Below, one piece after another: positions 28,056 through 62,130 of a stretch of 64,000 bases of DNA. The stretch covers positions 573,327-637,326 of the forward strand of contig CANMWO010000002.1 in assembly GCA_947501695.1 (NCBI GenBank), given 5' to 3'. The DNA comes from an uncultured Sphingomonadaceae bacterium. Lineage in GTDB: Bacteria > Pseudomonadota > Alphaproteobacteria > Sphingomonadales > Sphingomonadaceae. The notes beneath the pieces are model-generated. The model was not told where the DNA came from. It ran no database searches and saw only the letters and a list, made by a program, of their open reading frames with translations. The position numbers were made by a program, and so were the translations under genes. Position 1 is the stretch's first letter. Every line of letters starts with the position of its first letter.

Positions 28056-28064
28056 ATAGTGCAA

Positions 28065-28568
28065 ATGAAATCAACTTTGATAGCCGCCGTACTTGCAATC
28101 ACGCTCCCCATGGCCTCTCCCGCAAATGCGCTTGATGGTCAGGCAGAAATGTCGCCAACAGATGAGCAGATGATCGTCGAGTGGGGTAACAAGTGGCAGC
28201 AGTTGTTCGAGGCTGGTGATATCGAGCAGATGCGCGATATGTATGAACCCGACGCGGTTCTGATGGCCCATGGCGCGTTGCCGCAAACCGGCGTTGATGA
28301 AATCCTGTCATTTCTGGGCCGCAACAAAGCCGCTGGCAACAGAGTCACCATCGATTTTGCCAATGAAGACATCACCATCGACGGCCAGCGCGCTTATCTA
28401 ACCGCCAAATATTGGATGACAATCACCTTAGCCAACAGTCAAGTTCTGGACTTCAAAGGCCGATCCTTTCTGGTTTATAAGAAAAGTGGCGAGGGTCAGT
28501 GGCGGCTGTGGCGCGATATGGATAATCAGGCACCAGACGTGGCGGTGGAAGAACGCCCTACCCGTTAA
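28065..28568 (+). CDS. exported SnoaL/DUF4440 (YybH-like) protein
   Basis: Signal peptide MKSTLIAAVLAITLPMASPANA; YEPDAVLM, GQWRLWRDMDN. Confidence 0.78.
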   Translation: MKSTLIAAVLAITLPMASPANALDGQAEMSPTDEQMIVEWGNKWQQLFEAGDIEQMRDMYEPDAVLMAHGALPQTGVDEILSFLGRNKAAGNRVTIDFANEDITIDGQRAYLTAKYWMTITLANSQVLDFKGRSFLVYKKSGEGQWRLWRDMDNQAPDVAVEERPTR

Positions 28569-29467
28569 CCGATTTCAATCAGTTCCAACAGTTCACCAGC
28601 CGGACCATAAGCAGTCGCCGTTCGACGATCCCGATAAAGCGCCCCTGATCGGATCACAGGTGGAGCGATCCAGTCAATCTGGATCGCATCCAGATTGGAG
28701 ACGGCCAGCGTCACGAGCGCATTTCCAGGTGGCAACATTCCGGCATGCTTTGGTCGCAGCGTTGCTTCTTCGGGATAATCATCCACTTCAACAATCGGCA
28801 AGCGTTCGATCTGGACCATGGTCAAATCAGACACTGTTCCTGCCGGCTTTCCGAACGCTTCATTGATCATGGTATATTCCAACGTATAGGTATCGCCTTC
28901 TGTCAAATGAAGCTGATCGCGATACCAGTTCACGGTTTGCACGCGGTCCTGAGCCGCTAAAATGACGATGAATATGTGATCTGTCAGCGACCGCGCTTTG
29001 GGCAGATCTGTTGTTGGTGTATCCTCCCGCACCTCATTTAGGTAAATCATTTCGCGACCGGGGCCGAGTGCCTGCATCGGCACAAAATAGGGTAGAATAT
29101 CAATTTCCTTGGGCGGCCCGATAATATCAAAGCTACTGCCTTCCAAGCGCCCGGGCCAACCGAAGACATCTTCAACCGTTAATTCATAGGCCGCCCAGCC
29201 ATAAGTTGTGGTCGGTTTAAAATCGGGATGGGCAGGCTGCTCGACAAGGCGGATGAAGCAATCAGCGCCGCTAGTCGGCTGCAAGACGGCCATCGGTGCT
29301 CCGGCTATCTTTGGACAGTCCCAGCTTTGCGCCAGATCTTCGGTCAATGTGCCACTTTCCACAAGCTGCATGCCCAGCACATCATGATAATCTTTCAGAG
29401 CCACTTCCAGATTCGGGACAGTGACAACACCGCCCAATATCGAACCATGTTGCAAAGCATGTGTCAT
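28565..29467 (-). CDS. two-domain VOC family protein
   Basis: Two repeats (VVTVPNLEVALKDYHDVLG / IVILAAQDRVQTVNWYRDQL), end GPAGELLELIE. Confidence 0.72.
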   Translation of the reverse strand: MTHALQHGSILGGVVTVPNLEVALKDYHDVLGMQLVESGTLTEDLAQSWDCPKIAGAPMAVLQPTSGADCFIRLVEQPAHPDFKPTTTYGWAAYELTVEDVFGWPGRLEGSSFDIIGPPKEIDILPYFVPMQALGPGREMIYLNEVREDTPTTDLPKARSLTDHIFIVILAAQDRVQTVNWYRDQLHLTEGDTYTLEYTMINEAFGKPAGTVSDLTMVQIERLPIVEVDDYPEEATLRPKHAGMLPPGNALVTLAVSNLDAIQIDWIAPPVIRSGALYRDRRTATAYGPAGELLELIEIG

Positions 29468-29468
29468 G

Positions 29469-30233
29469 TCAAAACTCCGGTTTTCTCTTTTCCATGAAAG
29501 CGCTCACGCCCTCTTTGAAATCATCGCTTTCAAAAGCAGAGTCAAACAACCGCTCCGTCTCCGCATCATCATCGGCTTGCCCGTCCAATATCCGTTTGAT
29601 GATGGATTTGCTCATGGTCTGGCTGTGCGAAGAAACCGACGCCATAGTGTTCGCTAACGCTTCAGCCTCGCTATAGGGATCATCAACCAGCAAGGTAATC
29701 AAGCCGATATCCAAGGCTTCCTGTGCTGACAGCAATTGCCCGGTGAATAATATCCGCTTCGCTTGCGATGGTCCGACCAGATCGACGAGCAATTTGGTAT
29801 CGTGCAATGGATAGACCAGCCCCAGTTTGGAAGGCGTAATTCCGAAACGTGCTTTCGGACCAGCCACACGCATGTCGCAGGCCAGCGCTATGCCGCAACC
29901 ACCGCCGACACAATCACCATCGATGATCGCGATAGTCGGCTTGGGTGCCTGCGCTAGCTCATGCTGTACCTTACCAATGGCCGCCTGATTTTTGGCCCGC
30001 CATTCAGGATCGGTAGAGCCAGTTGCAAATTCACCAATATCGGCACCGGCACAAAAGGCGCTGTCCTTTCGGCTTGCATGCAAGGTCAACACGCGGATCG
30101 CATCGTCGGCCATTGCATCAGCCAGCAATTCGGGCAGCAGTTCCCACATCGCTTGATTAAACGCATTGCGCTTTTCCGGCCGGTCAATGATCAGATGTGC
30201 GACCTTGCCCTCTTTTTCGAGCCGCAATGTCAT
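29469..30233 (-). CDS. enoyl-CoA hydratase/isomerase (crotonase)
   Basis: RPEKRNAF, FCAGADIGEF, IDGDCVGGGCGIALACDMR, FGITPSKLGL, EGVSAFMEKRKPEF. Confidence 0.93.
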   Translation of the reverse strand: MTLRLEKEGKVAHLIIDRPEKRNAFNQAMWELLPELLADAMADDAIRVLTLHASRKDSAFCAGADIGEFATGSTDPEWRAKNQAAIGKVQHELAQAPKPTIAIIDGDCVGGGCGIALACDMRVAGPKARFGITPSKLGLVYPLHDTKLLVDLVGPSQAKRILFTGQLLSAQEALDIGLITLLVDDPYSEAEALANTMASVSSHSQTMSKSIIKRILDGQADDDAETERLFDSAFESDDFKEGVSAFMEKRKPEF

Positions 30234-31096
30234 GCAGGATCAACCTTCGCCAGATGCTGTGCAATCTGATGCCGGGTGGTCACCCAGACATGTTTTTTCG
30301 ACCGCACATGTTTCAGAAATTCTTCGAACGCCCAAATCCGGCCCGGACGACCAATGATGCGTAGATGCAGGCCGAGCGACATCATCTTGGGATTGCCTTC
30401 TTCGCCTTCGCGATAGACTTGATCAAAATTGCGCTTGGCATAATCCAGCCATTGCTGCGGTGTCATTGCCGGGTCGGTCCACATTTTCATATCATTGCTA
30501 TCGAGCTGATAGGGCACAATCGCAATCGGTTTTTCCGGAACCGTCTCCTTGTCCCAGAACGGAATATCGCCCGAATAATCATCCATATGATAGGCGAAGC
30601 CCTCTTCGATCAACAGGCGGCGGGTATTATCGGTATGGAAATAGCGCGACAACCATCCATAGGGCCGCGTGCCCGTGGTTTTCTCAATCGATGAAACAGC
30701 CTTGCGAATGAAATCGCGTTCCTTTTCCTCATCCATCTTGAACTGATGCACCCAGCGATAGCCATGGCTTACTGGTTCATGGCCCATGTCGGCGATAGCC
30801 TCGGCAATCTCGGGATGATTTTCCAGACTCATCGCGGCGACGGTCCAGCTGGCCATAATCTCATATTCTTTCAGTAGCTTAACGATGCGCGGCGCACCCG
30901 CCTTGATACCATAGAGATAGTTGCTCTCATTGCCATAATTGCGGATCGGCGATTTAATGTGGATGCCCAGCTCATCAACCGGTTCCATTCCGCGATCGCC
31001 GCGCGCAATCGTCATTTCACTGCCTTCTTCAACATTGACGACAATGCTCAGCGCCATTTTCGCATCGTCTGGCCAGTCCATCCGTTCTTCGATCAA
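30230..31096 (-). CDS. PuuE/allantoinase-like polysaccharide-deacetylase-fold amidohydrolase
   Basis: VVNVEEGSE, ESNYLYGIKAG, SHGYRW, RPYGWLSR, MMSLGLHLRIIGRPGR. Confidence 0.88.
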   Translation of the reverse strand: MIEERMDWPDDAKMALSIVVNVEEGSEMTIARGDRGMEPVDELGIHIKSPIRNYGNESNYLYGIKAGAPRIVKLLKEYEIMASWTVAAMSLENHPEIAEAIADMGHEPVSHGYRWVHQFKMDEEKERDFIRKAVSSIEKTTGTRPYGWLSRYFHTDNTRRLLIEEGFAYHMDDYSGDIPFWDKETVPEKPIAIVPYQLDSNDMKMWTDPAMTPQQWLDYAKRNFDQVYREGEEGNPKMMSLGLHLRIIGRPGRIWAFEEFLKHVRSKKHVWVTTRHQIAQHLAKVDPA

Positions 31097-31896
31097 TGCA
31101 TTTCCTCCCCGCCGGAAACGTTAAGCGCCTCTCCTGTAACATAAAAGGCATCGTCGCTAGCCAACCATGCACAGGCAGCTGCCGTATCCGATGGCAAACC
31201 GGGCCGCCCCATCGGATTTTTCGTGCTCATGTTAGCGAGATAGGCTTCGACATTTTCAAAACCGAGCAGCTTGGAAAAATATTCATTCTGCTGGGCGCCA
31301 AGACCGGTGGTCACATGATTGGGGCAAACTGCGTTGACCGTAATGCCGTGCGTACCAAGCTCCACTGCGCTGGCCCGGGTAAGGCCCACCATGCCATGTT
31401 TGGAACTCACATAAGCGGGCAGATGCGGGAAGCCGGTTTTTGCGGCTTGTGATGCAATGTTGATGATGCGGCCACCATTGCCTGCTGCAACCATCGCTTT
31501 GGCAGCCGCCTGGGTACAGTAAAACGCGCCGGATAGATTCACACCGATGACCTGATCCCATTCCTTGGCTGTATCGACCTCAAGCAGCGGCTTCATCATA
31601 AAACCGATACCGGCATTGTTGACGAAAATATCAACCGCACCAAAGGCATCCACGCTTTGATCGACCAAGGCCTGACATTGCACCGCATTACTGACATCAC
31701 AGGCGATGGTCGCGACTTTGGCGCCACGCCCACGTAATTCTTCAGCGACCCCTTCTTCCTGATCGCCGATGGCAAGGTCTGAGACGACACAATTGGCGCC
31801 TTCATCAGCAAAGCGTTGCAATATGCCTTGTCCCAGCCCCTTTTCCTTTCCGGAACCGGTAACGACGATCGTCTTTCCTGCAAATTTCCCGGACAT
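31093..31896 (-). CDS. short-chain dehydrogenase/reductase
   Basis: TGSGKEKGLG, FVNNAG, IASQA, YVSSK, VNAVCP. Confidence 0.92.
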   Translation of the reverse strand: MSGKFAGKTIVVTGSGKEKGLGQGILQRFADEGANCVVSDLAIGDQEEGVAEELRGRGAKVATIACDVSNAVQCQALVDQSVDAFGAVDIFVNNAGIGFMMKPLLEVDTAKEWDQVIGVNLSGAFYCTQAAAKAMVAAGNGGRIINIASQAAKTGFPHLPAYVSSKHGMVGLTRASAVELGTHGITVNAVCPNHVTTGLGAQQNEYFSKLLGFENVEAYLANMSTKNPMGRPGLPSDTAAACAWLASDDAFYVTGEALNVSGGEEMH

Positions 31897-32204
31897 TAGA
31901 GATCTTCTGTAAGTATGAATTGTGGGCCGTCGGCATAGTCCTGGAAAGGTGCCGCCATCGCTTGAAATTCTGGGTCCGACACATCGGTGACAAATTCATC
32001 CATGCCGGTAATATCGATAATCTCGAAATATTCGTAAGGCGACGGATCATCCGAACCGAACAGGCCGGTTGCTTTGTGGACGGTGAAAGACGTGACCGAA
32101 CTCAGCGCGCTGGCTGCGGGAATATCGCGTGTTTTCGCCCACTCCTCATATTCACCGATATCGACGCCTTCTTTCAGGTTAAACAAAACAATGATGCGCA
32201 TCAT
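31896..32204 (-). CDS. RedY/PigK/HapK-like (EthD-type dimeric alpha+beta barrel) protein
   Basis: IIVLFNLKEGVD..EYEEWAKTRDIP...L.SV..F.V......PYEYFEIIDI resembles the REDY-like HapK family from memory; needs HMM confirmation. Confidence 0.68.
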   Translation of the reverse strand: MMRIIVLFNLKEGVDIGEYEEWAKTRDIPAASALSSVTSFTVHKATGLFGSDDPSPYEYFEIIDITGMDEFVTDVSDPEFQAMAAPFQDYADGPQFILTEDL

Positions 32205-33412
32205 CTCTCTCCTCTATATGTTTCCAAAAAAACTTCTGGCACGCGATAGGCGGACAGCTTTTCGTCCAGCTCTCGCGCTAGTGCAAATAGCCCCAGTTCA
32301 TTACCTGCAGCGCCGATGAGCTGCATGCCAACCGGCAAGCCATCGCTTGACCAACCTGCGGGGATACTGATCGCGGGTAATCCGGCGATATTGGCTAAGC
32401 AAGTAAAGTCGGCCTGATTGGCTGGTGCCTTATCGTCATGGCTGAATGCGACTTGCGGCGCGGTAGGTAGCAAAATCGCGCCATGTTGCTCCACTACCGC
32501 CCTGATAGCATCGGTTGTTTCGGCGAGAGTTTTCTGGTCTTCCGCTAAGTCAGCAGCACTGCGTTCCGTGCCAAAGGTCAGCAGAAACTTGAGATGGTCA
32601 GACAGGCCGTCAGGGTTATTTTTCAGTACATCTGCCAGTTCTTGGGACAGGCCCAGCGAGGACAGGATAAACCCGGCAAAACGGATGCGGGTCAGCGGGT
32701 GCGGCAAGGTAAACTTCTGTTTGGCTCCAACGGCCTCCCGAGCCCTTTCGTAGCCTTCAAGCACAGCGGGCTCACAGTCCACGCCGCCAAGATTTTCTAA
32801 TAATGCTATATTTTCAATGACTTGCGGATCAGCGAGATTCATCAATACCCGCGAAACCGTCTCCAAGTCCTCCAGTGATCGCGCCAGCGGACCGATGCTG
32901 TCGAGCGATGAATCCACAATCTCAAGTCCATCCTGACTGATCGCACCGGCGGTCGGTTTCAGACCATAGATGCCGCAATAGGCCGCCGGAATCCGCACCG
33001 ATCCCATCGTGTCCGTACCCAATGCAGCATCGCAAAGTCCTGCCGCCACCGCAGCACCGCTGCCACCCGAAGAACCACCCGGCGTATAACTGATCTTGTG
33101 CGGATTATGGGTCGCACCGAAAAACGGATTGTCCGTCTTGGCACCAAGCGCCGCTTCTTCCATGTTGAGCGTGCCGATTATCGCAGCGCCAGCCGCGCGC
33201 AGTTTCGCAACAGCTTCGGCGTCCTTACCGGCGATGCGATCCTTGTAAGCCTTCAAGCCGCCAGTCCAGGGCAATCCCTCAACCGCAATATTGGCTTTGA
33301 TGCCAATAGTCAGATTACTCAGCGGCCCGTCACCAAGCCGCGCATCCCGATCGAAATCGGTAAAGGCATTTAGCGCAGCATTAGCACTTTCAAGATCATC
33401 CCAATGGAGCAT
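32201..33412 (-). CDS. amidase (amidase-signature family)
   Basis: IGIKANI, TPGGSSGGSGAAVA, GTDTMGSVRIPAAYCG (Lys-cisSer-Ser triad). Confidence 0.92.
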   Translation of the reverse strand: MLHWDDLESANAALNAFTDFDRDARLGDGPLSNLTIGIKANIAVEGLPWTGGLKAYKDRIAGKDAEAVAKLRAAGAAIIGTLNMEEAALGAKTDNPFFGATHNPHKISYTPGGSSGGSGAAVAAGLCDAALGTDTMGSVRIPAAYCGIYGLKPTAGAISQDGLEIVDSSLDSIGPLARSLEDLETVSRVLMNLADPQVIENIALLENLGGVDCEPAVLEGYERAREAVGAKQKFTLPHPLTRIRFAGFILSSLGLSQELADVLKNNPDGLSDHLKFLLTFGTERSAADLAEDQKTLAETTDAIRAVVEQHGAILLPTAPQVAFSHDDKAPANQADFTCLANIAGLPAISIPAGWSSDGLPVGMQLIGAAGNELGLFALARELDEKLSAYRVPEVFLETYRGER

Positions 33413-33420
33413 CGATCAGA

Positions 33421-34782
33421 TCATAGCCCCCGCTCGTCAATCAGGCGAATCGGCTTTTGCCTTGTATCAATTTGCGTAGCCTTGGCCGTAGCACCAACAT
33501 CGACAAGTTGCACAGCTACCTCAATGCCCAATCCCTTGCGCAACAGATCAACGGTTTGTGCATGATTGCTATCGCCGCGACTTTCCAATGTCACATGCAT
33601 GTCATCTCGTCCGGCGGCGTCTCGCGTCACGCGGCAGACATATTCACCTGTCAGATCATCCCGCCCTTCAATGATCGCACCAATAGCGTGAGGAAAAATG
33701 TTGATACCGCGCAGCTTGACCATATTATCGCTGCGGCCCTTGAAACCGGTAATCCGCTTGAACACCATCCCGGTGGCATTGCTGTCGGTGCGTTCCTCGG
33801 TAATATCATGGGTGTTGAACCGGATACAGGGCGCGATGTCGTCCTTAAACAGGCATGTAACGACCATGTCACCCGTTTCGCCAGGTGCTACTGGCGCGCC
33901 GGTATCGACATTCAACAATTCCAGATATTGTGCATCTTCCCAAACATACATGCCGTCGCGTTCCGGTCCCTCTCCGGCGATGCTGCCGGTGTCACCGACG
34001 CCGTACCAATCAAAAGCTTTGGCCCCCTGCCAAGCCGCTTCGGTTGAGGCACGATCTTCGGTCCCCAGATGACCGATGATCATTTTCAAATTGATCCGGT
34101 CAAACAATTCTTCTGCTGCCGCGACATCTCCCAATTTGCGGATATAGTCGACAAAACCAACCATGCAGGTAACTTTGAAATCGGCCATCAGATTGACCTG
34201 GTTGATCGACCGAGTTTCTATCCCTGTACCTGCGCTCAAGAACAGGGCGTTAGTAAAGTGGGTCACGGCCTCGCGAATGTAATGCCCGCCGTTGATCATC
34301 CCGTGGCCATATACCGACTGCACGACATCATCCCGGCCCAACCCCATCCAGCGATACATCCGCCCGACTAGCAGATTGGTAATTTCTCTGCCCTTGGGGC
34401 CAAACATCAAGGGTTGCGGTCGCCCAGTCGTCCCCGAAGTAGTATGGAAAACCACCGGTTCGTCGCCGCGACCATCAAAATCACCATAAGGTGGAAATTC
34501 ATTGACCGAGGCCATCAAATCGCTCTTGTCATAAACAGGAAGCTTAATAATGTCGGCCAAGCTCGCAATGTCACCAGCTTCAACACCCTGATTTCCCCAC
34601 AGGCGTTGATAGAAAGGAATCTCCCAACCACGCTTCATGAGTTTCAGGAACCGCTTTTCCTGCAAAGCATGAAGCTCGTCTCGCGACATGCCGACATATC
34701 GGTTCGTAAAGGCTTCACCGATCGGATAATCTGCCAGCATCTGTTTGGCATCAAAGGCTTCGAAATAAGTTGGGAAGGTCAT
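33421..34782 (-). CDS. phenylacetate--CoA ligase-like (PaaK-family) adenylate-forming enzyme
   Basis: LPVYDKSDL, HTTSGTTGRP, WYGVGD, GRSDNMVKLRGINIFP. Confidence 0.87.
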   Translation of the reverse strand: MTFPTYFEAFDAKQMLADYPIGEAFTNRYVGMSRDELHALQEKRFLKLMKRGWEIPFYQRLWGNQGVEAGDIASLADIIKLPVYDKSDLMASVNEFPPYGDFDGRGDEPVVFHTTSGTTGRPQPLMFGPKGREITNLLVGRMYRWMGLGRDDVVQSVYGHGMINGGHYIREAVTHFTNALFLSAGTGIETRSINQVNLMADFKVTCMVGFVDYIRKLGDVAAAEELFDRINLKMIIGHLGTEDRASTEAAWQGAKAFDWYGVGDTGSIAGEGPERDGMYVWEDAQYLELLNVDTGAPVAPGETGDMVVTCLFKDDIAPCIRFNTHDITEERTDSNATGMVFKRITGFKGRSDNMVKLRGINIFPHAIGAIIEGRDDLTGEYVCRVTRDAAGRDDMHVTLESRGDSNHAQTVDLLRKGLGIEVAVQLVDVGATAKATQIDTRQKPIRLIDERGL

Positions 34783-36086
34783 CGGGGCTCCGTCGCATAG
34801 GCTAAAGGATCGTCAAATATTCTGTTGTCGCAATCGTTACTGGCAAGATTGCGAGCAAGATCACATTTGGCTTTGGTCTGGGCATCGGACATTGGCGCGG
34901 TAGGGCTGCCAAGATTGTCTGTGATTACGCGCTTAACCTGCGTGCCATCGGAAAGAGTGATGTTCAGTTGCTGGGGCGCCAAAGCATTGTGATCAGAATT
35001 ATCATCAATCCGAACAGTCACTTTCCCGCCAAGCCCCGCCAATGCCGGATTGGCAAATTCGGCTGCCGTGAAACAGCGCGGATCGATCATCCGATCCCGT
35101 AGCATCAATGGCACAAGAAAGGGCAGGCATAGCCGCGCATAGCTTGGTGTCATATCCGTCTTATAGGGCCGCCCAACGAGTCGGTGGATCAACGGTGGCG
35201 CAGCGACATCGACCGATTGCACCATTGCCGGATCAAGAGATCCATCGCGGAGCATGTTATCAATAACGCCCAATATTCCATGGCTGGCCCGCCCGGATGG
35301 GAAAGGCTTTATACTGACGTCTTCAATCAGCCATTTGGCGCCAACATTCTTAGTATAGAGAGAAATATCGCCGGGCTCGAACAGTTTAAAATAACCATAT
35401 GGCCCTTCTAGCGCATCATGCGGTCCATTCATGCCTGCTTTGGCGAGATCGACTGCGGTAATCGCGGCCCGGGACGCACTGGCAATTTGCAGAGGCAAGG
35501 CAATTGATGCCTCTATATGGGCCTGCATCGTACCGGCAGCCTGGGAATAAGCGAGACCCAGGACATCAGCGAAGCGTTCGGCAGGCAGGCTTTCAAGCCG
35601 CGCCACCGCTAAAGCCGCACCGATAATGCCTGCCGTAGCTGGGCGGAAAAACTGCATGCCGCCAGTCGCCGCAACACCCATACCGCTTGCGATATCAACG
35701 CCTACGGCCAGCGCAGTTAGCAACTGCTCCGAGTCACATCCACCCATGCGATCTGCGCTTGCGAGCAAGGCCGCAGTAACAACGGACATAGCATGAACCA
35801 CCGCCGGTTCATGCACAGCATCCCATTCGAGGCAATGGATTGCAAAGCCATTAAACCAGGCTGCTGAGGGCGTTGGCATGCGGTCTTCCGAACCCAGTAA
35901 TCTTGCATCAGCACCTATACCCCACCCCTTCAGCGCGGGCATCATGGATTGCCCTGCAGCGGAAGCGGCACCCGAAGCGCCTATAGCTAGGGTGTCTCCG
36001 AGCAGATGGAGAGTTCCAGCTTTTGTGCTTGCGGGCAAGACATGATCTACCGCAGCAAAATCTAGGATTTGTCGTGTCGCGGTCAT
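34779..36086 (-). CDS. MmgE/PrpD family protein
   Basis: NGFAIHCLEWDAVH...HAMS, KPFPSGRASH, DNLGSPTAPM. Confidence 0.88.
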   Translation of the reverse strand: MTATRQILDFAAVDHVLPASTKAGTLHLLGDTLAIGASGAASAAGQSMMPALKGWGIGADARLLGSEDRMPTPSAAWFNGFAIHCLEWDAVHEPAVVHAMSVVTAALLASADRMGGCDSEQLLTALAVGVDIASGMGVAATGGMQFFRPATAGIIGAALAVARLESLPAERFADVLGLAYSQAAGTMQAHIEASIALPLQIASASRAAITAVDLAKAGMNGPHDALEGPYGYFKLFEPGDISLYTKNVGAKWLIEDVSIKPFPSGRASHGILGVIDNMLRDGSLDPAMVQSVDVAAPPLIHRLVGRPYKTDMTPSYARLCLPFLVPLMLRDRMIDPRCFTAAEFANPALAGLGGKVTVRIDDNSDHNALAPQQLNITLSDGTQVKRVITDNLGSPTAPMSDAQTKAKCDLARNLASNDCDNRIFDDPLAYATEPR

Positions 36087-37312
36087 GACAGCCAGTCTTG
36101 CAGCATCTGGTGAATTTCGTGCGGATTATCGGTTTTAAGCGCCAGATCAATAGCGCGGTCCGCTTCTTTTTCCGACAGTCCGCCCCAGGCAACAAGCGCG
36201 CGAGTCTTATTGATCATGCCTTCGTAAGACAAAGGTCGTTCTGGATCTCCGAGCGTATCGACCAGTTCGATGCTTTCACCGCCTCCGCTAACCCGCGCGC
36301 CATAATGATCTGGGTATCGTGCGGTGATATCGCTCGCTTCCGAAACTTTGATACGGCTGCGTGCTTTGGCGAGCGCAGCGATCGCTTCTGGTTCAAAATC
36401 TGCTAGCTGTGGGACGCCGCGTTCGGCGACGATGGCCAAAGCGTGCTGGATCGAGAATTTTGCATCAATGACGGATAGCGGATCAGGTCGGTCACAAAAA
36501 CTGATCGCATCGGCATAGGTTTCAACATAAATATCGCCATCGAGCACTTGTAGCTTAGCTTTAAGTTTCAACGCGGCATCGATAGCTGGATGGGCGTGAC
36601 GGCATGCCCCCCATGGCTTGAAGCTGACTTCATGGATACGCCATTGATCCGGGAAGGTCATCGGTTTTGGGCTTTCACAAGTTGCAGCGTAAAGTCCTTG
36701 CGGCCCTTCGAGTATAAACCTAGGGCCTATAGCCCCATCTTCCGCTGCCATTCCGGCTTCGACCCCACTCATATGGGCGTGCGATATATGCCATTGCTTG
36801 GCATCCGAATGCTCATGTCGCATCTGCCACAATCCGCCTGCAATACTGCCTACGAGCCCCATGGCGTTGACCATGACCTGCTGATCCAATCCCTCGTCTC
36901 CCATAGAGACGATGGCTGCACCAAACGCCCCGGCCGTCGCGGTATTGTGATAAAAGGAATAATGCCGGTCATCGAAGGTTGACCCAATTGCTATGATTGC
37001 TTCATATCCACGGACGGCTGCATCAAGGAACGAATTCATCGTTCCCGCAGGACTTTCAAGCGCCGGCCAAATGACTGGGCCGGGGTGCAGGATTGAGCTT
37101 CGGTGCACATCATCCATCTCTAGGACATTGCCCAGCCATGCAGACCGGCTGCTGAAATCTCCCAGCTTCTTTTTCGCCTGTCCTGAATTGTGCGCTCCAG
37201 CCACACAGCCAAGCCAATCGAGCAAATGCAGTCTTGCCCGTTGCCGGGTCGCCTCATCAACGGGTCGCATCAAATGTACGGACAATTTCTCGGTCAGGCT
37301 CTCTTGCGTCAT
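36083..37312 (-). CDS. MmgE/PrpD family protein (second, tandem)
   Basis: ARLHLLDWLGC, LEMDDVH...HPGPVIWP, FKPWGACRHAHPAID, AKFSIQ, LGDPERPLS. Confidence 0.88.
   Translation of the reverse strand: MTQESLTEKLSVHLMRPVDEATRQRARLHLLDWLGCVAGAHNSGQAKKKLGDFSSRSAWLGNVLEMDDVHRSSILHPGPVIWPALESPAGTMNSFLDAAVRGYEAIIAIGSTFDDRHYSFYHNTATAGAFGAAIVSMGDEGLDQQVMVNAMGLVGSIAGGLWQMRHEHSDAKQWHISHAHMSGVEAGMAAEDGAIGPRFILEGPQGLYAATCESPKPMTFPDQWRIHEVSFKPWGACRHAHPAIDAALKLKAKLQVLDGDIYVETYADAISFCDRPDPLSVIDAKFSIQHALAIVAERGVPQLADFEPEAIAALAKARSRIKVSEASDITARYPDHYGARVSGGGESIELVDTLGDPERPLSYEGMINKTRALVAWGGLSEKEADRAIDLALKTDNPHEIHQMLQDWLS
37274..37285. promoter_or_regulatory. degenerate operator (ATGTACGGACAA), possible autoregulatory site of gntR
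   Basis: 2 mismatches to consensus; lies inside the 5' end of the divergent MmgE/PrpD gene, 53 bp upstream of the gntR ATG. Confidence 0.45.
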
Positions 37313-37338
37313 CGCCGCACCCGTCCTAAGACTGAGCT

Positions 37339-38100
37339 ATGTCTGGGAGAGAAAATTTGGCCACCAAAAGCTCGGCGAAGAAAAAGCCTCGCTATCTGGA
37401 ATTGGCCGATGAACTGCGTGAAGCAGTTTTGCGCGGTGACTATTCCGATCCTGGCGATTTCCCAACCGAATCCGTCTTGTGCAAAAAATACGATGTGAGC
37501 CGTTTCACCGTCAGAGAGGCTTTGCGCAAACTGACAGCAGAGGGTCTGATCACCCGTAAACGTGGTTCGGGAACGGTGGTTCAGCCAGCAACCGCTCGCG
37601 CCGGTGCGCTGCATCAACCGCTCAGCAATGTCGGTGAGATTTTGCAGTATGCGCATGACACTACGATCAGCTTTGAACCAGGAAAACCTGGCGCGATTCC
37701 TCACGATGTCGCTGAACAGATTGATACCAAAGCCAAAGGTGATTGGTTTACTTTTCGCGGCAAGCGCACAAAGCTCGGTCGCAAGCGGCCGATTGCTGTG
37801 ACCGAAGCATGGGTTCATCCGGAGCTGGCGGACGCGGTCGCACAGATTGATATCAACGCCAAAACCCTTTTTGGGCAGATCGAAACTTTGGGGCAAGTCA
37901 GTGTGACTCGAGTGACGCAGGATATTCAAGCGATCAAGGGCACGAAAAAGATATTGGCGGACCTCGGCTTGGAAAAGGGCGATCCTGTGCTGCGTATCTT
38001 GCGCTGCTATTTTGACGAAACCGACCGGATGTTTGAGATTTCGGCGAGCTATCATCCCGGCGAACGCTTTGCCTATTCGATGCATATCGAGGTCGATTAG
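37339..38100 (+). CDS. GntR family regulator, HutC subfamily (wHTH + UTRA)
   Basis: PRYLELADELRE...FPTESVLCKKYDVSRFTVREAL...RKRGSGTVV; UTRA-type C-terminus (VTQDIQA, PVLRILRCYF, SYHPGERF). Confidence 0.92.
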   Translation: MSGRENLATKSSAKKKPRYLELADELREAVLRGDYSDPGDFPTESVLCKKYDVSRFTVREALRKLTAEGLITRKRGSGTVVQPATARAGALHQPLSNVGEILQYAHDTTISFEPGKPGAIPHDVAEQIDTKAKGDWFTFRGKRTKLGRKRPIAVTEAWVHPELADAVAQIDINAKTLFGQIETLGQVSVTRVTQDIQAIKGTKKILADLGLEKGDPVLRILRCYFDETDRMFEISASYHPGERFAYSMHIEVD

Positions 38101-38108
38101 AGCCCGCT

Positions 38109-39197
38109 TCATTGCAACTTATCGACGATTGGGGCATCTTCCGCTTGCCAATTCTTTTCCGACGCAAAGCGAAACGACGGCCCAATCTGATGGCTACCAT
38201 GGGCCTCGATCAATAGGCCGCGCTCGCGTAGGAAATCCTGATCCAGTGCGTCCCGAAAATCGAGAACGGGGGAGAAAGCAACATCCTTATCGGCGAACCA
38301 AGCGACCCATTCATCACGGCTTTTGGTTGCGAAGGTTCCGCGCAAATAGGCAATTAGGGGCGCTTGCCCGGCGCCGGGCTCAGCCTCGGCGAGTGGCAAT
38401 AAATCTATTCTATCCAATGCTTTAAGAAGGTTTCGCGCGAATTTTATTTCCCGAGCGCCAAGCACGACATGCTTGCCATCGGCGGTTTCGTAAACATTGT
38501 AAAAGGCCGCGCCACCCAGAGAGCGTTGTGATTGAGATTGTGGTGATGCGCCTCCGGAAATGGCCGACCCAGCGGTATGGGCACACCAAGGGAGCATGGA
38601 GTCAAACATCGCGATATCGATATAGTCGCCCTCGCCCGATTTCTCCCGACCGATCAACGCCATAAGCACCGCTGACAAACCATTCAGACCAGCGGCCATA
38701 TCCGCTGAAGGCACACCGGGTACCACCGGCGTTCCGTCCGCACCATCGTTGACCGACAGAAAGCCGGACAGGGCCTGCACTGCGAGGTCATGCGCGGGAT
38801 GTTGCGCCATTTCGCCCTCTTGCCCAAAGGCAGAGATAGAACAATAGACAAGCTTCGGAAAGCGCGCCGATACAGCTCCGTAGTCAAAACCGAGCCGCTT
38901 CATCACACCGGGCCGAAATCCCTCGATCATCACGTCAGCATCCGCCAACAAATCCCACAACTGCGCTCGACCTTCGTCGGATTTGAGATCCAGCGTCAGC
39001 GCCTGCTTGCCGCGATTGAGATTGCGGAACCAAACCGATTGACCCGCTTCCATTGGTTCCATTGTCCGCGCAGGATCGCCAGCAGGCGGCTCGACCTTGA
39101 TCACTTCAGCGCCATGGTCGGCCATCATCATGCTGAGCATCGGGCCCGGCAGAAAAAGCGAGAGGTCAATGACCTTGATACCCGTTAGCTTGGCCAT
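38109..39197 (-). CDS. CaiB/BaiF family III CoA transferase
   Basis: VIDLSLFLPGP, VIKVEPPAGDPAR, NLNRGK, EGFRPGV, AHDLAVQALSG. Confidence 0.92.
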   Translation of the reverse strand: MAKLTGIKVIDLSLFLPGPMLSMMMADHGAEVIKVEPPAGDPARTMEPMEAGQSVWFRNLNRGKQALTLDLKSDEGRAQLWDLLADADVMIEGFRPGVMKRLGFDYGAVSARFPKLVYCSISAFGQEGEMAQHPAHDLAVQALSGFLSVNDGADGTPVVPGVPSADMAAGLNGLSAVLMALIGREKSGEGDYIDIAMFDSMLPWCAHTAGSAISGGASPQSQSQRSLGGAAFYNVYETADGKHVVLGAREIKFARNLLKALDRIDLLPLAEAEPGAGQAPLIAYLRGTFATKSRDEWVAWFADKDVAFSPVLDFRDALDQDFLRERGLLIEAHGSHQIGPSFRFASEKNWQAEDAPIVDKLQ

Positions 39198-39204
39198 TGG
39201 AGTT

Positions 39205-40398
39205 TCAGACTATCCCTTTCGCGCGCAGATCCGCAATCGCATCCGCATCATAACCAGCCTCGGCCAATACCGCATCACTGTCAGCGCCGAGCAATGGCCC
39301 CGCGCGGTTCGGCAAACGTTCGCCATTCAATTTGATCGGGCTGGACAATACATTCATGTCCGCGCGATCCGGATGGCTGACTGTATCACGCATGCCGATG
39401 GTTTTCAGCCAAGGACTATCCAGCGCCTGATCTAAACCATAAACGGGGGCGATAGGCATCAATCCCTGAAGCAATTCCAGCCAATGCGCCACCGGCTGGG
39501 CAGCAAAAACCTCACCCAACAGATCCGAAAGCGCCGCGCGATTGGTCAGGCGATTGGCCGGTGTATCAAAGCGCGGGTCGGTGATGAGCGCTTCGTAACC
39601 AATCCGCTCACACAGGATCGTCCAGAATTTCGGCAACTGTGCCATGACAAACATCCAGCCATCCGCCGCCTTGAACATCTGACTGGGCGTCGCCGAAGGA
39701 TGGGCACCATAAGGCGCGCGGCCCGTGACATCCTGTTCATTCATATACCAAAGTGCTGGATAGCTGGTCTGATGCACAGCCGCCGATAACAGATCGACAT
39801 CGACATCACAGCCTTCGCCGGACCGCTGCGAATCCAGCAAGGCAGCGAGCAAACCAACGGCAGCCATCGTGCCCGTCATGAAATCCACCATCGACAGGCC
39901 AAAGCGCACCGGCGGCCCATCGGGATCACCGGTTAGCGCGCAGAAACCGGCTTCGGCCTGCATCAAATAGTCATAGCCCGGCCATTTCGACCGTTCATTG
40001 CCGCGACCATAGGCGGAGATATGCGCGCAAACGATCGCGGGATTAACCGCTTTCAATGCGTCATAGTTCAGGCCAACTTTATCCGGCACGTCACCGCGCA
40101 GATTATTCGCTACGACATGCGCGTCCTTAGCGAGATCATGCAGCACCTTCTGGCCTTCATCAGTCCGCAGGTCGAGGGTGAGCGAACGCTTGTTGAGATT
40201 GAAACTTTGAAAATAGAGGCTTTCCTGTTCGCGCAACCAGTGCGGCCCAACATGCCGCGCCGTGTCGCCACCTTTTGGCGGTTCGATCTTAATGACGTCA
40301 GCGCCCATTTGCGCTAGGAACATGGTGCCATAAGGACCGGCACCATATTGTTCCGCGGAAAGAACGCGAAAGCCTTTGAGGGGTTGTTTTACGCTCAC
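39205..40398 (-). CDS. CaiB/BaiF family III CoA transferase (second, tandem)
   Basis: EQYGAGPYG, GADVIKIEPP.GGD, FNLNKRS, GYDYLMQAEAG. Confidence 0.92.
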   Translation of the reverse strand: MSVKQPLKGFRVLSAEQYGAGPYGTMFLAQMGADVIKIEPPKGGDTARHVGPHWLREQESLYFQSFNLNKRSLTLDLRTDEGQKVLHDLAKDAHVVANNLRGDVPDKVGLNYDALKAVNPAIVCAHISAYGRGNERSKWPGYDYLMQAEAGFCALTGDPDGPPVRFGLSMVDFMTGTMAAVGLLAALLDSQRSGEGCDVDVDLLSAAVHQTSYPALWYMNEQDVTGRAPYGAHPSATPSQMFKAADGWMFVMAQLPKFWTILCERIGYEALITDPRFDTPANRLTNRAALSDLLGEVFAAQPVAHWLELLQGLMPIAPVYGLDQALDSPWLKTIGMRDTVSHPDRADMNVLSSPIKLNGERLPNRAGPLLGADSDAVLAEAGYDADAIADLRAKGIV

Positions 40399-41573
40399 GC
40401 AGGGTTCCTCTTAACCCACTGTTTGGAAATGATCATTCGCTGCATCTCATTGGTACCCTCGCCAATGCACATGAGCAATGAATCGCGATAATAGCGTTCA
40501 ATCTCATATTCTTTGGAATAAGCATAGCCGCCATGGACGCGCATCGATTCCTCGGAATTGCGGACCGCCGCTTCCGAGGCAAAATATTTCGCCATACCTG
40601 CTTCCAGATCACAGCGTTCGCCGCGATCATAAGCTTCGGCAGCATCCAGCGTCAGCAAGCGCGCAGCCCGCGCCCGCGTTACCATTTCGCCGAGCTTCAA
40701 CTGGATCGCCTGATGGTCGGCTATCGGTTTGCCCATGGTCTCGCGCAGCTGCGCATATTCCGTCGCCAACCGCAACGAGCCCTCCGCCAAGCCAACGCCG
40801 CGTGCGGCCACATTGATCCTGCCAAGTTCCAGACCACCAGTGGCCTGAAAAAAACCTTGCCCTTCAACGCCGCCGATCAGGTTCTCGGCGGGAATACGAT
40901 AATTGTCGAACATCAACTCTGCGCTGTCGATACTGTTATAACCGAGTTTCTTGAACTTCTTGCCAACTGTAAAGCCCTCGCCCTTGGGCGCGATCATAAG
41001 GCTCATACCTTTGTAGCGCGGGTCCGCTTTCGGATCGGTTTTAACCAGCAGCGCAAAACAGCTGCCATTGATGCCGTTAGAAATCCAAGTCTTGGTACCG
41101 TTGATCACATAATCATCGCCATCCCTTACGGCAGTCGTGCGGATCGCCTGCAAATCGGTACCCGCATTGGGCTCAGTCAAAGCCAGTCCGCCGCGAATTT
41201 CACCGCTGGCAAATTTGGGTAGCCATTTGGCTTTTTGCTCGGCCGTGCCAAAACGCTCGACCGCACAGGCCATGATCAGGTGCGAATTGAAAATGCCAGT
41301 GATCGCCATCCAGTGAGACGCGATCTCGGCAACAATTTTCGCATAGCTGGTCGCCGGTAAGCCCAGGCCTCCATATTGCTCGCCGATAGTGGCACCGAAC
41401 AATCCCATGTCAGCCATTTCACCAACAAGCTGTTCGGGCCATTTATCCTCATGATCATGTTCCATGACCACGGGCTTTACCGAACGCATAATCCATTTCT
41501 GGATCGCATCCATGAAAGCCTGTTCCTCTTCCGGGTCAATCATATGCTGCGCAGTATCAATTGCCGTTGCCAT
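40395..41573 (-). CDS. acyl-CoA dehydrogenase
   Basis: LALTEPNAGTDL, INGTKTWISNG, GRINVAARGVG, RVHGGYAYSKEY.IERYYRD, IGEGTNEMQR. Confidence 0.93.
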   Translation of the reverse strand: MATAIDTAQHMIDPEEEQAFMDAIQKWIMRSVKPVVMEHDHEDKWPEQLVGEMADMGLFGATIGEQYGGLGLPATSYAKIVAEIASHWMAITGIFNSHLIMACAVERFGTAEQKAKWLPKFASGEIRGGLALTEPNAGTDLQAIRTTAVRDGDDYVINGTKTWISNGINGSCFALLVKTDPKADPRYKGMSLMIAPKGEGFTVGKKFKKLGYNSIDSAELMFDNYRIPAENLIGGVEGQGFFQATGGLELGRINVAARGVGLAEGSLRLATEYAQLRETMGKPIADHQAIQLKLGEMVTRARAARLLTLDAAEAYDRGERCDLEAGMAKYFASEAAVRNSEESMRVHGGYAYSKEYEIERYYRDSLLMCIGEGTNEMQRMIISKQWVKRNPA

Positions 41574-41652
41574 TATCGTCGCTCCTGAATATCTTAAAAT
41601 TGGGGCCCCTCCCCCATTTTATTCTAGTCGCCAGCCTATTTAGTTGGCCGGT

Positions 41653-42162
41653 TTAATCGTCGGCTCCGCCAAATCCGCGTTTCCAGATCAGCATCGTGCG
41701 TTCAAAAGTACACACAACTTTATCATCCTGATTTTTGCCAATGGTCTTAATTGTTACGATGCCCTGCTCCGGTCGCGAGGCGGACTCTTTTTTGTTCAGA
41801 ACTTCGCTTTCGGCGTAAAGCGTGTCGCCGGGAAATAGCGGATGAGTAAGGCGGATTTTATCCCAACCCAAATTGGCCACGGCTTTCTGGCTGGTATCCG
41901 AAACGCTCATTCCAACCATCAATGCAACAGTCAACGGAGAGCAGACCAAAGGCTTTTTGAACTCGGTTTTCTTGGCAAATTCATAATCGAAATGCGCCGG
42001 ATGGGTGTTCATTGTCAGCAAAGTGAAATGCACATTGTCGGTATCGGTGATCGTCCGGCCGGGACGATGCTCATAGATATGACCGACTTCAAAATCTTCA
42101 TAATAACGCCCGAAAGTTTCGCGGAAACGTCCCGGGCTGACTTCAATTACTCCATCACGCAT
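41653..42162 (-). CDS. MaoC-family (R)-specific hydratase/dehydratase (itaconyl-CoA hydratase/RipB-like)
   Basis: GRYYEDFEVG.IYEHRPGRTITDTDN..FTLLTMNTHPAHFD, ANLGWD, PLFPGDTLY. Confidence 0.88.
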   Translation of the reverse strand: MRDGVIEVSPGRFRETFGRYYEDFEVGHIYEHRPGRTITDTDNVHFTLLTMNTHPAHFDYEFAKKTEFKKPLVCSPLTVALMVGMSVSDTSQKAVANLGWDKIRLTHPLFPGDTLYAESEVLNKKESASRPEQGIVTIKTIGKNQDDKVVCTFERTMLIWKRGFGGADD

Positions 42163-42197
42163 GTATTTATCCTTATCTGTAAAATCGATTTAAATGT

Positions 42198-43007
42198 TCA
42201 GGCCGTAGCAACGACATGACGATATCGTTGCATAACCGGTGCTTCCAACATACGGCCATTATGACTAATTGCTTTGCCGCCAGCTTCATCAAATGCATTG
42301 ATCGCATCTATGGCTTCGGTTATTTCGGCAGCCGTAGGTTTCATTGCGGTTGCAATGGCGGAAATTTGCTTGGGATGGATAGCTGCTTTGGCATGAAAAC
42401 CCATCGCCTTCGCTTTGCGGGATTCTTCTTCCAAACCCGCTTCGTTGCCCATATCAATATAGGGCACATCAATCGCAGTTACAGCAGCCGAGGCGCAGCA
42501 TAATATGAACCCCCCACGCGCTGCCAAAAGTGGTTCCCATTCGAGCTTAGTTCCAAGCTCAGCAGAAAAATCACCGCCGCCGAACATCATAGCGGTAACC
42601 CCGGCACTCGCGGCAATAGCATCTCCTGCGCGCAGTCCTTTGACCGTTTCGATAAGCGGGACCAGACCATCTATCCGGTCACCCATAATAGCGTGAACAA
42701 TTTCAACCTCTGTTGGACTTTCCACCATCGGCAGAAAAATCAAAGAAGGAAGATGTTTTGCTGTGGATAGCGCGAGCAAGTCAGCGAGACCGGCTGCGGT
42801 TTTAAGACCATTGATTCGCACCGCTGTTTTCGAACGATCGAGTGTATTTAATGCGTCCAGAACGGATTCGCGTGCACTGTCTTTCTGATCCGCAGGGACC
42901 GAATCCTCCAGATCGATACAGATCAGATCAGCATCGCTATTCGCTGCTTTTTCAAAGCGTTCAGGGCGATTGGCAGGTACAAAAAGGAAGTTGGTAAAAC
43001 CGGACAT
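42198..43007 (-). CDS. CitE/HpcH-family CoA-ester lyase (citramalyl-/malyl-CoA lyase-like)
   Basis: LFVPANRPERFEKA, IDLEDSVP, VRING, PLIET..G, FGGGDFSAELG, GFHAKAAIHPKQ, GRMLEAP. Confidence 0.9.
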   Translation of the reverse strand: MSGFTNFLFVPANRPERFEKAANSDADLICIDLEDSVPADQKDSARESVLDALNTLDRSKTAVRINGLKTAAGLADLLALSTAKHLPSLIFLPMVESPTEVEIVHAIMGDRIDGLVPLIETVKGLRAGDAIAASAGVTAMMFGGGDFSAELGTKLEWEPLLAARGGFILCCASAAVTAIDVPYIDMGNEAGLEEESRKAKAMGFHAKAAIHPKQISAIATAMKPTAAEITEAIDAINAFDEAGGKAISHNGRMLEAPVMQRYRHVVATA

Positions 43008-43049
43008 AAGTTCCATTATCATGATTGATTGATATTGCCTCTTCACAAT

Positions 43050-43061
43050 TTGTCCGGACAA
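43050..43061. promoter_or_regulatory. operator site 6 (TTGTCCGGACAA)
   Basis: Exact palindrome in the divergent gap between citE-like (-) and DUF1838-like (+). Confidence 0.85.
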
Positions 43062-43131
43062 ATCTAAAGTCAACTAGAAAGTGAAATTAATTGCATTATC
43101 ACTGGACGTAACTTTTAGGGAGAAGCGTGAA

Positions 43132-62104: not shown

Positions 62105-62130
62105 TTGTCGAGACAAATTTGTCCGGACAA
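62105..62130. promoter_or_regulatory. tandem operator sites 10 and 11 (TTGTCGAGACAA; TTGTCCGGACAA)
   Basis: 62105-62116 (2 mismatches) and 62119-62130 (exact) in the 86 bp divergent gap. Confidence 0.85.

Follow-up and report, generated by a model that had tools for sequence, protein, structure and literature searches.

A conserved stop-free frame antisense to a GntR-type repressor gene, a putative translated bridge within a probable proteobacterial non-contiguous operon

The cluster menE-menC-MW1733-ytkD-MW1731 of Staphylococcus aureus was reportedly described as a non-contiguous operon (NcO) by Saenz-Lahoya et al. in 2019. According to an atlas of S. aureus NcOs, their transcription has to pass through antisense regions that are not translated, and runaway transcription in Gram-positive bacteria is given as the explanation (PMC11034616). 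In phage P4, eta is coupled to the gene upstream of it, and its translation averts termination, whereby the downstream genes are read, according to PMC10111431, which cites Forti et al. 1999 (PMC94026). A review of antisense proteins makes no mention of Rho or polarity (PMC7457138). Here we analyze a 64,000-nucleotide stretch of DNA, called the window, from an uncultured Sphingomonadaceae bacterium (contig CANMWO010000002.1, positions 573,327 to 637,326), in which the repressor gene gntR lies backwards within a run of catabolic genes. The strand opposite gntR is an open reading frame (ORF) that joins the genes on either side. Its conservation gives very strong evolutionary support to a translated bridge across gntR, and on this comparative evidence the locus would be a new form of NcO.

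Organization of the run and the bridging frame

The ORF map and Pfam scans place 14 minus-strand genes in a tight run (28565–43061) that extends from the citE-like gene (ATG at 43007) to the VOC gene (28565). Adjacent genes of the run overlap by 1 or 4 nt or are separated by gaps of 1–79 nt. The sole plus-strand gene within the run is gntR (37339–38100). Its product scores above the curated cut-offs for a GntR winged helix-turn-helix domain (PF00392, E = 6.7e-17) and for a UTRA domain (PF07702, E = 5.3e-16), and the arrangement of an N-terminal DNA-binding domain and a C-terminal UTRA effector domain classifies it as a HutC-type repressor. The starts of gntR and prpD1 are 26 bp apart (37313–37338), and the stops of gntR and caiB2 are 8 bp apart (38101–38108). 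The initial annotation had recorded the 14 genes with gntR as their only interruption, the two short gaps and the lack of a visible terminator, and all three observations agree with our map. In simple scans, the operon strand had no terminator-like site from caiB2 to prpD1, and neither the run as a whole nor its 3' end exceeded the level of shuffled sequence. Promoter-like sites were likewise not in excess in the run. The initial annotation did not contain the ORF on the strand opposite gntR. This 267-codon minus-strand frame is codon-aligned with gntR, and with it the run becomes a continuous chain of 15 reading frames. The central features are as follows; the evidence is the ORF map and Pfam unless stated.

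38109–43007, minus strand: upstream half of the run, citE-like to caiB2 (ORF map, Pfam, synteny)
38109–39197, minus strand: caiB2, family-III CoA-transferase
38109–38112, minus strand: junction A, ATGA, where the caiB2 stop TGA overlaps the ATG of the bridging frame (sequence)
37309–38112, minus strand: bridging antisense ORF, 267 codons, 804 nt (ORF map)
37339–38100, plus strand: gntR, GntR and UTRA domains, without TTA, CTA or TCA codons
37309–37312, minus strand: junction B, ATGA, where the stop TGA of the bridging frame overlaps the prpD1 ATG (sequence)
36083–37312, minus strand: prpD1, MmgE/PrpD
28565–37312, minus strand: downstream half of the run, prpD1 to VOC (nine genes), with no operator of its own in the window (ORF map, Pfam, synteny)

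Named relatives place the genome of the window in Parasphingorhabdus/Sphingorhabdus. Orthologs of gntR were compared in 19 same-genus genomes (72–92% identity) and in additional named loci, including those of Allopontixanthobacter (73%) and Novosphingobium (55%). Cultured carriers include Parasphingorhabdus marina DSM 22363 (L050), Sphingorhabdus sp. EL138 and Sphingorhabdus sp. 109. The embedded set consists of 32 distinct loci from three genera (Parasphingorhabdus/Sphingorhabdus, Allopontixanthobacter and Novosphingobium) that have gntR between caiB2 and prpD1. The initial annotation had proposed synteny of the inverted gntR as a check, and the arrangement, in which a gene from the opposite strand separates co-directional genes of one functional unit, is kept in all 32. 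The whole 14-gene synteny is conserved in the embedded relatives. Genome G021 has two diverged caiB2-gntR-prpD1 modules (L017 on contig C1 and L026 on contig C13), and the antisense frame is open in both.

The junctions are also conserved. The start of the bridging frame overlaps the caiB2 stop in every embedded locus; the overlap is ATGA in most, GTGA in L011 and L039, and TAATG in L013 and L043. This start/stop overlap has, at the level of sequence, the form of P4 eta-type translational coupling. The final caiB2 codon is variable (CAA, AAA, GAA, GGA and others), yet its third base is almost always A. The distance from the bridge start codon to the gntR stop is 3, 6, 9 or 18 nt, so it changes in steps of 3 and the phase is constant. 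Junction B is ATGA in all embedded loci except L048, where it is GTGA. A conserved CCTAAG/CTTAAG motif lies in the 26-bp spacer and takes the form of a GTCTTAAGAC palindrome in several lineages. After it on the operon strand comes a purine-rich, GGACGGG-like stretch, a candidate ribosome-binding site for prpD1. A conserved RNA structure that would mask a ribosome-binding site at the prpD1 start was considered and rejected; the consensus folds at -5 kcal/mol, no pair covaries, and the z-score for the single sequence is 0.26. The N terminus of PrpD1 is apparently shorter than that of its paralog: PrpD1 (409 aa) first meets the MmgE/PrpD N-domain profile at profile position 82 (residue 62), and PrpD2 (435 aa) meets it at position 16 (residue 18).

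Mirror-stop codons and selection on the frame

Stops in the bridging frame would read as TTA, CTA or TCA codons in gntR, which we call mirror-stop codons, and gntR has none. These codons account for 2.18% of codons in the genome that holds the window (3.6 Mb, 51.8% GC), giving P = 0.004 for zero in 253 codons; the genome-wide chance of zero is ~0.004–0.01 per gene. Only 7 of the 1917 genes of at least 240 aa lack mirror stops, gntR among them, and the other six are pheS, rplC and an etfB-like gene with strong codon bias, or probable miscalls. The genome has 85 genes located between opposite-strand neighbors, and gntR is the only one of these without mirror stops.

The same codons are missing throughout the embedded set (0 of 8137 gntR codons). 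In the 19-locus set, the count is 0 of 4820 codons in gntR compared to 121 of 7130 in caiB2 and 152 of 7597 in prpD1, a usage of 1.7–2.0% in the flanking genes. The four other alternative frames of gntR have 1–19 stops each in this set, mostly 5–14. The pairwise synonymous difference (pS) in gntR is 0.5–0.8, which is near saturation and 0.93–0.95 of the flank value. Because synonymous sites are nearly saturated, the embedded lineages are effectively independent and shared ancestry cannot explain the zero count. A Fitch count on the tree gave at least 138 synonymous Leu/TCN-Ser changes in gntR with no mirror-stop events, compared to 175 of 623 in the flanks. The tree-aware expectation for gntR is 38.8 events with 0 observed (P ~1.5e-17), and a harsh 0.4 gene-specific discount for the under-use of NCA and ATA codons leaves P = 1.8e-7.

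This discount refers to a second feature of gntR codon usage. The codons GCA, CCA, ACA and ATA are under-used ~2.5-fold relative to caiB2 and prpD1, and GTA, GGA, AGA and CGA are near normal. A general shunning of A-ending or TA-containing codons is only partly consistent with this pattern and was rejected as the explanation; absolute depletion is confined to the three mirror codons. The antisense of the scarce codons is TGC, TGG and TGT (Cys/Trp) and TAT. One possible cause of their scarcity is that Cys and Trp are avoided in a by-product peptide; another is avoidance of codons a single change away from a stop.

Genes outside the operon serve as natural controls. The non-embedded set consists of L010, homologs in Sphingosinicella and Croceicoccus, and six distant HutC-type homologs. 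All nine have mirror stops (1–9 each), despite a GC content at third codon positions of up to 0.86. Mirror-stop-bearing genes are therefore 0 of 32 among embedded and 9 of 9 among non-embedded loci (Fisher's exact test, 1/C(41,9) ~3e-9, a value that ignores phylogeny). One of them is L010 (G029:C155:4784-8521), a gntR copy with 76% identity that has moved out of the operon, has gained TCA and CTA codons, and retains ~50 nt of a decayed prpD1 5' end. By these features L010 is a natural relaxed-selection control.

These data bear on whether the run is two independent operons, with a prpD1 promoter inside gntR and an open frame that is a by-product of codon bias. Long codon-aligned antisense ORFs are a known artefact, and this explanation can also point to an operator 28 bp upstream of prpD1 in deeper lineages and to prpD1 heading its own operon in Sphingosinicella. 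It does not account for the per-gene and tree-aware probabilities, for the regular use of mirror stops in the flanks and in every non-embedded homolog, or for the conserved overlaps at the junctions. Nor is there a conserved synonymous block inside gntR in the 32 embedded loci that would point to a promoter. A sigma-70 promoter scan around gntR gave zero matches on both strands, a result that could neither place a gntR promoter nor exclude one for prpD1. Chance and codon bias are ruled out as sources of the open frame by the genome-wide, flank, tree-aware and non-embedded comparisons, and two independent operons, already strongly disfavored, are extremely improbable.

The product of the frame was examined as a possible protein. 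Its identity between lineages is 0.41–0.61, compared to 0.32–0.73 for imaginary antisense translations of caiB2 and prpD1, and its codon-usage score is at the 47th percentile among antisense frames of the genome. We did not detect a Pfam family in the product. An AlphaFold model from a 23-sequence alignment has a mean predicted local distance difference test score (pLDDT) of 30, a predicted template modeling score of 0.19, and no residue above a pLDDT of 50. Codon usage, conservation, Pfam and AlphaFold rule out the bridge as a normal gene. True dual coding, in which the 267-aa antisense product is a functional protein of the pathway and both strands are selected as protein, is supported by a frame open in 32 loci with gene-like 4-nt overlaps to both neighbors. 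The four-fold sites of gntR are ~9% less diverged than those of caiB2, and the NCA/ATA scarcity could mean composition constraints on the product. The lower four-fold divergence would also follow from the exclusion of A after CT and TC. Dual coding is difficult to reconcile with product identity no higher than that of the imaginary translations, with a gntR pS so close to that of the flanks, with codon usage typical of an antisense frame, and with the lack of a family or a confident fold, and it is quite improbable. Among the hallmarks of overlapping genes, the locus has the long, conserved-open antisense ORF and lacks purifying selection on amino acids and a recognizable fold. These comparisons show that the frame, its junctions and its phase are under strong selection, which acts on openness and phase and not on the amino acid sequence of the bridge.

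Proposed crossing of gntR and control of the run

An antisense frame that is selected to be open and phased implies that its strand is transcribed and translated, and it is hence indirect evidence for read-through. The case that the run is one unit read through gntR antisense, as the initial annotation had proposed, and thus a proteobacterial NcO, is strong though indirect, and the lack of a terminator adds to it. We judge it reasonably likely that ribosomes pass over a translated bridge from caiB2 to prpD1 on a read-through mRNA and that Rho polarity is averted in this way. The single head operator and the conserved 14-gene synteny also favor this explanation. A single transcription unit would begin at a GntR-controlled promoter near 43048 and run through gntR. 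A ribosome would end caiB2 at UGA, restart at the overlapping AUG (AUGA, 38112), and translate the 267-codon frame, which would be possible only because gntR avoids TTA, CTA and TCA. It would then stop at the UGA that overlaps the prpD1 AUG (AUGA, 37312) and pass to prpD1. The polypeptide would be a by-product, and the selected trait would be unbroken ribosome cover over the 804 nt antisense to gntR. This cover would keep Rho off a C-rich, purine-poor segment, would carry translational coupling on to the nine genes downstream, and perhaps would also block pairing with the gntR mRNA. Of the antisense frames, only the codon-aligned one can lose all its stops through changes that are synonymous in gntR, which explains why the bridge uses it.

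The composition of the segment is consistent with a role for Rho, which the genome encodes. On the operon strand, C clearly exceeds G in the bridge alone (+0.049 compared to -0.025 to -0.148 in other segments; hapK is about neutral), and no part of the strand is poorer in purines (0.476). Such a composition is expected to favor Rho loading. Rho dependence would follow from this composition and from general knowledge of proteobacterial polarity. What we infer, beyond the selection on the frame, is that the run is transcribed through gntR, that the frame is translated, and that it serves to protect the transcript from Rho.

Several observations weigh against this explanation. There is no Shine-Dalgarno sequence ahead of the bridge ATG, and initiation would need termination-reinitiation. 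The scarcity of NCA and ATA codons means that removing three codons from flank usage does not reproduce that of gntR. The conservation and folding tests alone could miss a functional protein that is disordered or consists of a small motif. In Sphingosinicella, prpD1-prpD2-ligase is an operon by itself; it diverges from gntR, an operator lies between the two, and caiB2 is missing upstream. This layout suggests an ancestral two-operon state that was fused later. In deeper lineages, the near-consensus operator that lies on the gntR ATG, 28 bp upstream of prpD1, would suit an independent regulated prpD1 promoter. An operator-controlled internal promoter in those lineages would leave the open frame unexplained.

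A likely side effect of the translated bridge is that induced transcription and translation across gntR would lower repressor synthesis; silencing of the repressor on induction, an excludon-type positive feedback, is a plausible inference. The bridge could instead be mainly a regulatory device, in which induction silences gntR by collision, by cleavage of double-stranded RNA by RNase III or by transcriptional interference to form a positive-feedback switch, and downstream expression is secondary or aided by an internal promoter. In its favor, the operon RNA would be complementary to the gntR mRNA along the whole 762 nt, the starts lie just 26 bp and the stops just 8 bp from each other, operator-like sites at the gntR 5' end suggest tight control of the repressor level, and the NcO precedent shows mutual repression (PMC11034616). 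Antisense silencing needs transcription only, and 267 stop-free codons phased to both neighbors are left unexplained. We consider a mainly regulatory role unlikely.

The control elements at the head of the run and at the gntR 5' end are listed below.

43048–43063, no strand: head operator of the run, ATTTGTCCGGACAAAT, a perfect palindrome of 16 bp in the gap between the divergent citE-like and DUF1838 genes, 40 nt upstream of the citE-like ATG
37272–37287, no strand: degenerate operator AAATGTACGGACAATT, 12/16 matches, core 10/12, in prpD1 codons 9–14, at -67 from the gntR ATG
37286–37312, minus strand: near-invariant first 27 nt of prpD1, ATGACGCAAGAGAGCCTGACCGAGAAA, a candidate promoter region for gntR at 27–53 nt upstream of its ATG

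The operator ATTTGTCCGGACAAAT occurs once within the run at up to 3 mismatches, and every embedded relative has one homologous operator, at the head of its run. The initial annotation named this site, at 43050, as the only perfect operator for the run. That is accurate but misleading, since the window has 13 matches at up to 3 mismatches compared to 0.34 expected, with a second perfect copy at 62117. The good copies are all at the heads of transcription units (15863, 17484, 22362/22410/22603, 43048, 44832, 46533, 49271 and 62117), and the units include two TonB-dependent receptor genes. There is no operator before prpD1 in the window, though every other unit of the island has its own. At up to 1 mismatch, the palindrome has 5–13 copies in exactly the 19 congeneric genomes with gntR, and it is missing from the other congeners except for 2 copies in G030, whose assembly is 78% complete. 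These copies define an island-wide regulon of ~10 sites whose presence, judged by genome comparison, tracks gntR across the genus. A 31%-identical GntR homolog in another family of the same order (G058:C1:54836-55649) has ATTTGTCTGGACAAAT 91 bp upstream of its start, and this favors a connection of the palindrome with this GntR subfamily. The only other regulator in the island, among 10 further candidate proteins scanned, is a LysR; it is considered an unlikely owner of the palindrome, the site being an even-length perfect palindrome. HutC-subfamily proteins bind palindromes of the GT..AC type at the promoters that they control. GntR is the likely binder here.

The gntR 5' end varies between lineages. 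The initial annotation proposed the degenerate operator inside prpD1 as an autoregulatory site. The site AAATGTACGGACAATT is present, and it is kept in only some close relatives, its 10/12 core at -67 being retained in 7 of the closest loci. In deeper lineages, a near-consensus ATATGTCCGGACAAAA overlaps the gntR ATG (core 11/12), and this site was lost in the clade of the window; P. marina has such an ATG-overlapping site. Strong operator sites lie at -68 in Sphingosinicella L051, a position equivalent to that of AAATGTACGGACAATT, and at -38 in Novosphingobium. Autoregulation of gntR is likely from these positions, and which site serves is uncertain. The ATGACGCAAGAGAGCCTGACCGAGAAA block is almost unchanged in all embedded loci, though synonymous sites elsewhere are saturated, and it may hold the gntR promoter. 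A candidate promoter on the plus strand reads TTGCGT, 17 nt, TAAGAC, from which the gntR mRNA would be nearly leaderless.

The remaining genes of the run, all on the minus strand and assigned from the ORF map and Pfam, are as follows.

42198–43007, minus strand: citE-like, HpcH/CitE-like lyase
41653–42162, minus strand: MaoC hydratase
40395–41573, minus strand: acyl-CoA dehydrogenase
39205–40398, minus strand: caiB1, family-III CoA-transferase
34779–36086, minus strand: prpD2, MmgE/PrpD
33421–34782, minus strand: PaaK-like ligase
32201–33412, minus strand: amidase
31896–32204, minus strand: HapK-like
31093–31896, minus strand: SDR
30230–31096, minus strand: deacetylase
29469–30233, minus strand: enoyl-CoA hydratase
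28565–29467, minus strand: VOC

At the 3' end of the run, the VOC gene converges with a plus-strand SnoaL/DUF4440 gene (28059–28568). The two overlap by 4 nt at 28565–28568 with no terminator-like site, and their adjacency is kept in most relatives. The operons that end in SnoaL/DUF4440 and VOC share the same head operator (22603 and 43048), so they would be co-regulated and collide head-on.

Implications and comparison with known systems

The stated problem of NcOs is how transcription survives a long ribosome-free stretch, and runaway transcription is the Gram-positive answer. This locus suggests a proteobacterial solution under Rho polarity, in which a translatable frame evolved through a backwards gene by synonymous changes only. 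If so, selection can favor a reading frame purely for being translated, which complicates annotation and claims of antisense proteins. The absence of three codons from an embedded gene would then be a comparative signature of read-through operons for which RNA data are unneeded, and one synonymous mutation in gntR should be enough to cause polarity on the nine downstream genes. The case bears on transcription-translation coupling and on the design of repressor feedback. We suggest tentatively, as an idea that may well prove too broad, that such conduit frames are a general unannotated class in bacteria: ORFs selected only for openness and phase that let Rho-sensitive operons cross opposite genes, with the addition here that induction would also silence the operon's own repressor and form a bistable switch. 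If general, conduit frames would be detectable genome-wide as embedded genes without TTA, CTA and TCA.

Itaconate degradation genes encode the Ict CoA-transferase, the Ich hydratase and the Ccl lyase. The run resembles them in having an HpcH/CitE-like lyase, a MaoC hydratase, family-III CoA-transferases, an acyl-CoA dehydrogenase, MmgE/PrpD proteins and VOC. It differs in that the CoA-transferases and PrpD are duplicated and in the presence of an amidase, a ligase, a deacetylase and a HapK-like gene.

We found no earlier description of this locus, or of a cellular operon with a translated antisense bridge, in the literature searched. The bridge is like the antisense genes of enterohemorrhagic Escherichia coli (PMC9927249; review PMC7457138) in being a long ORF that lies entirely opposite an annotated gene and is kept open among relatives. 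Those genes are proposed to encode functional proteins from their own promoters, whereas the bridge appears to be selected for openness only and is tied into the operon by start/stop overlaps. As in the excludons of Listeria (reviewed in PMC7154746), one long transcript would be the mRNA for one gene set and antisense to the opposite neighbor. Expression is mutually exclusive in Listeria, and it may be so at this locus. The overlap in excludons is described as an untranslated region or an antisense RNA, whereas here it is a candidate translated frame.

Like the S. aureus NcOs, the run combines related co-directional genes with one opposite-strand gene, and the operon transcript is expected to be fully antisense over that gene. 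The crossed region is described as untranslated in S. aureus; here, in an alphaproteobacterium with Rho, it is a conserved ORF phased to both neighbors. The embedded gene here is also the operon's own repressor, and co-transcription is predicted from the sequence. Phage P4 eta is the nearest mechanistic precedent. As in the nested eta/kil genes, the frame would be coupled to the upstream gene, and prevention of termination by translation, reported for P4, is proposed here. Eta is a protein with activities of its own that is encoded over RNA immunity elements on a mobile element, and it has no sequence relationship to the bridge. The bridge, in contrast, lies antisense to the repressor gene of a chromosomal catabolic operon.

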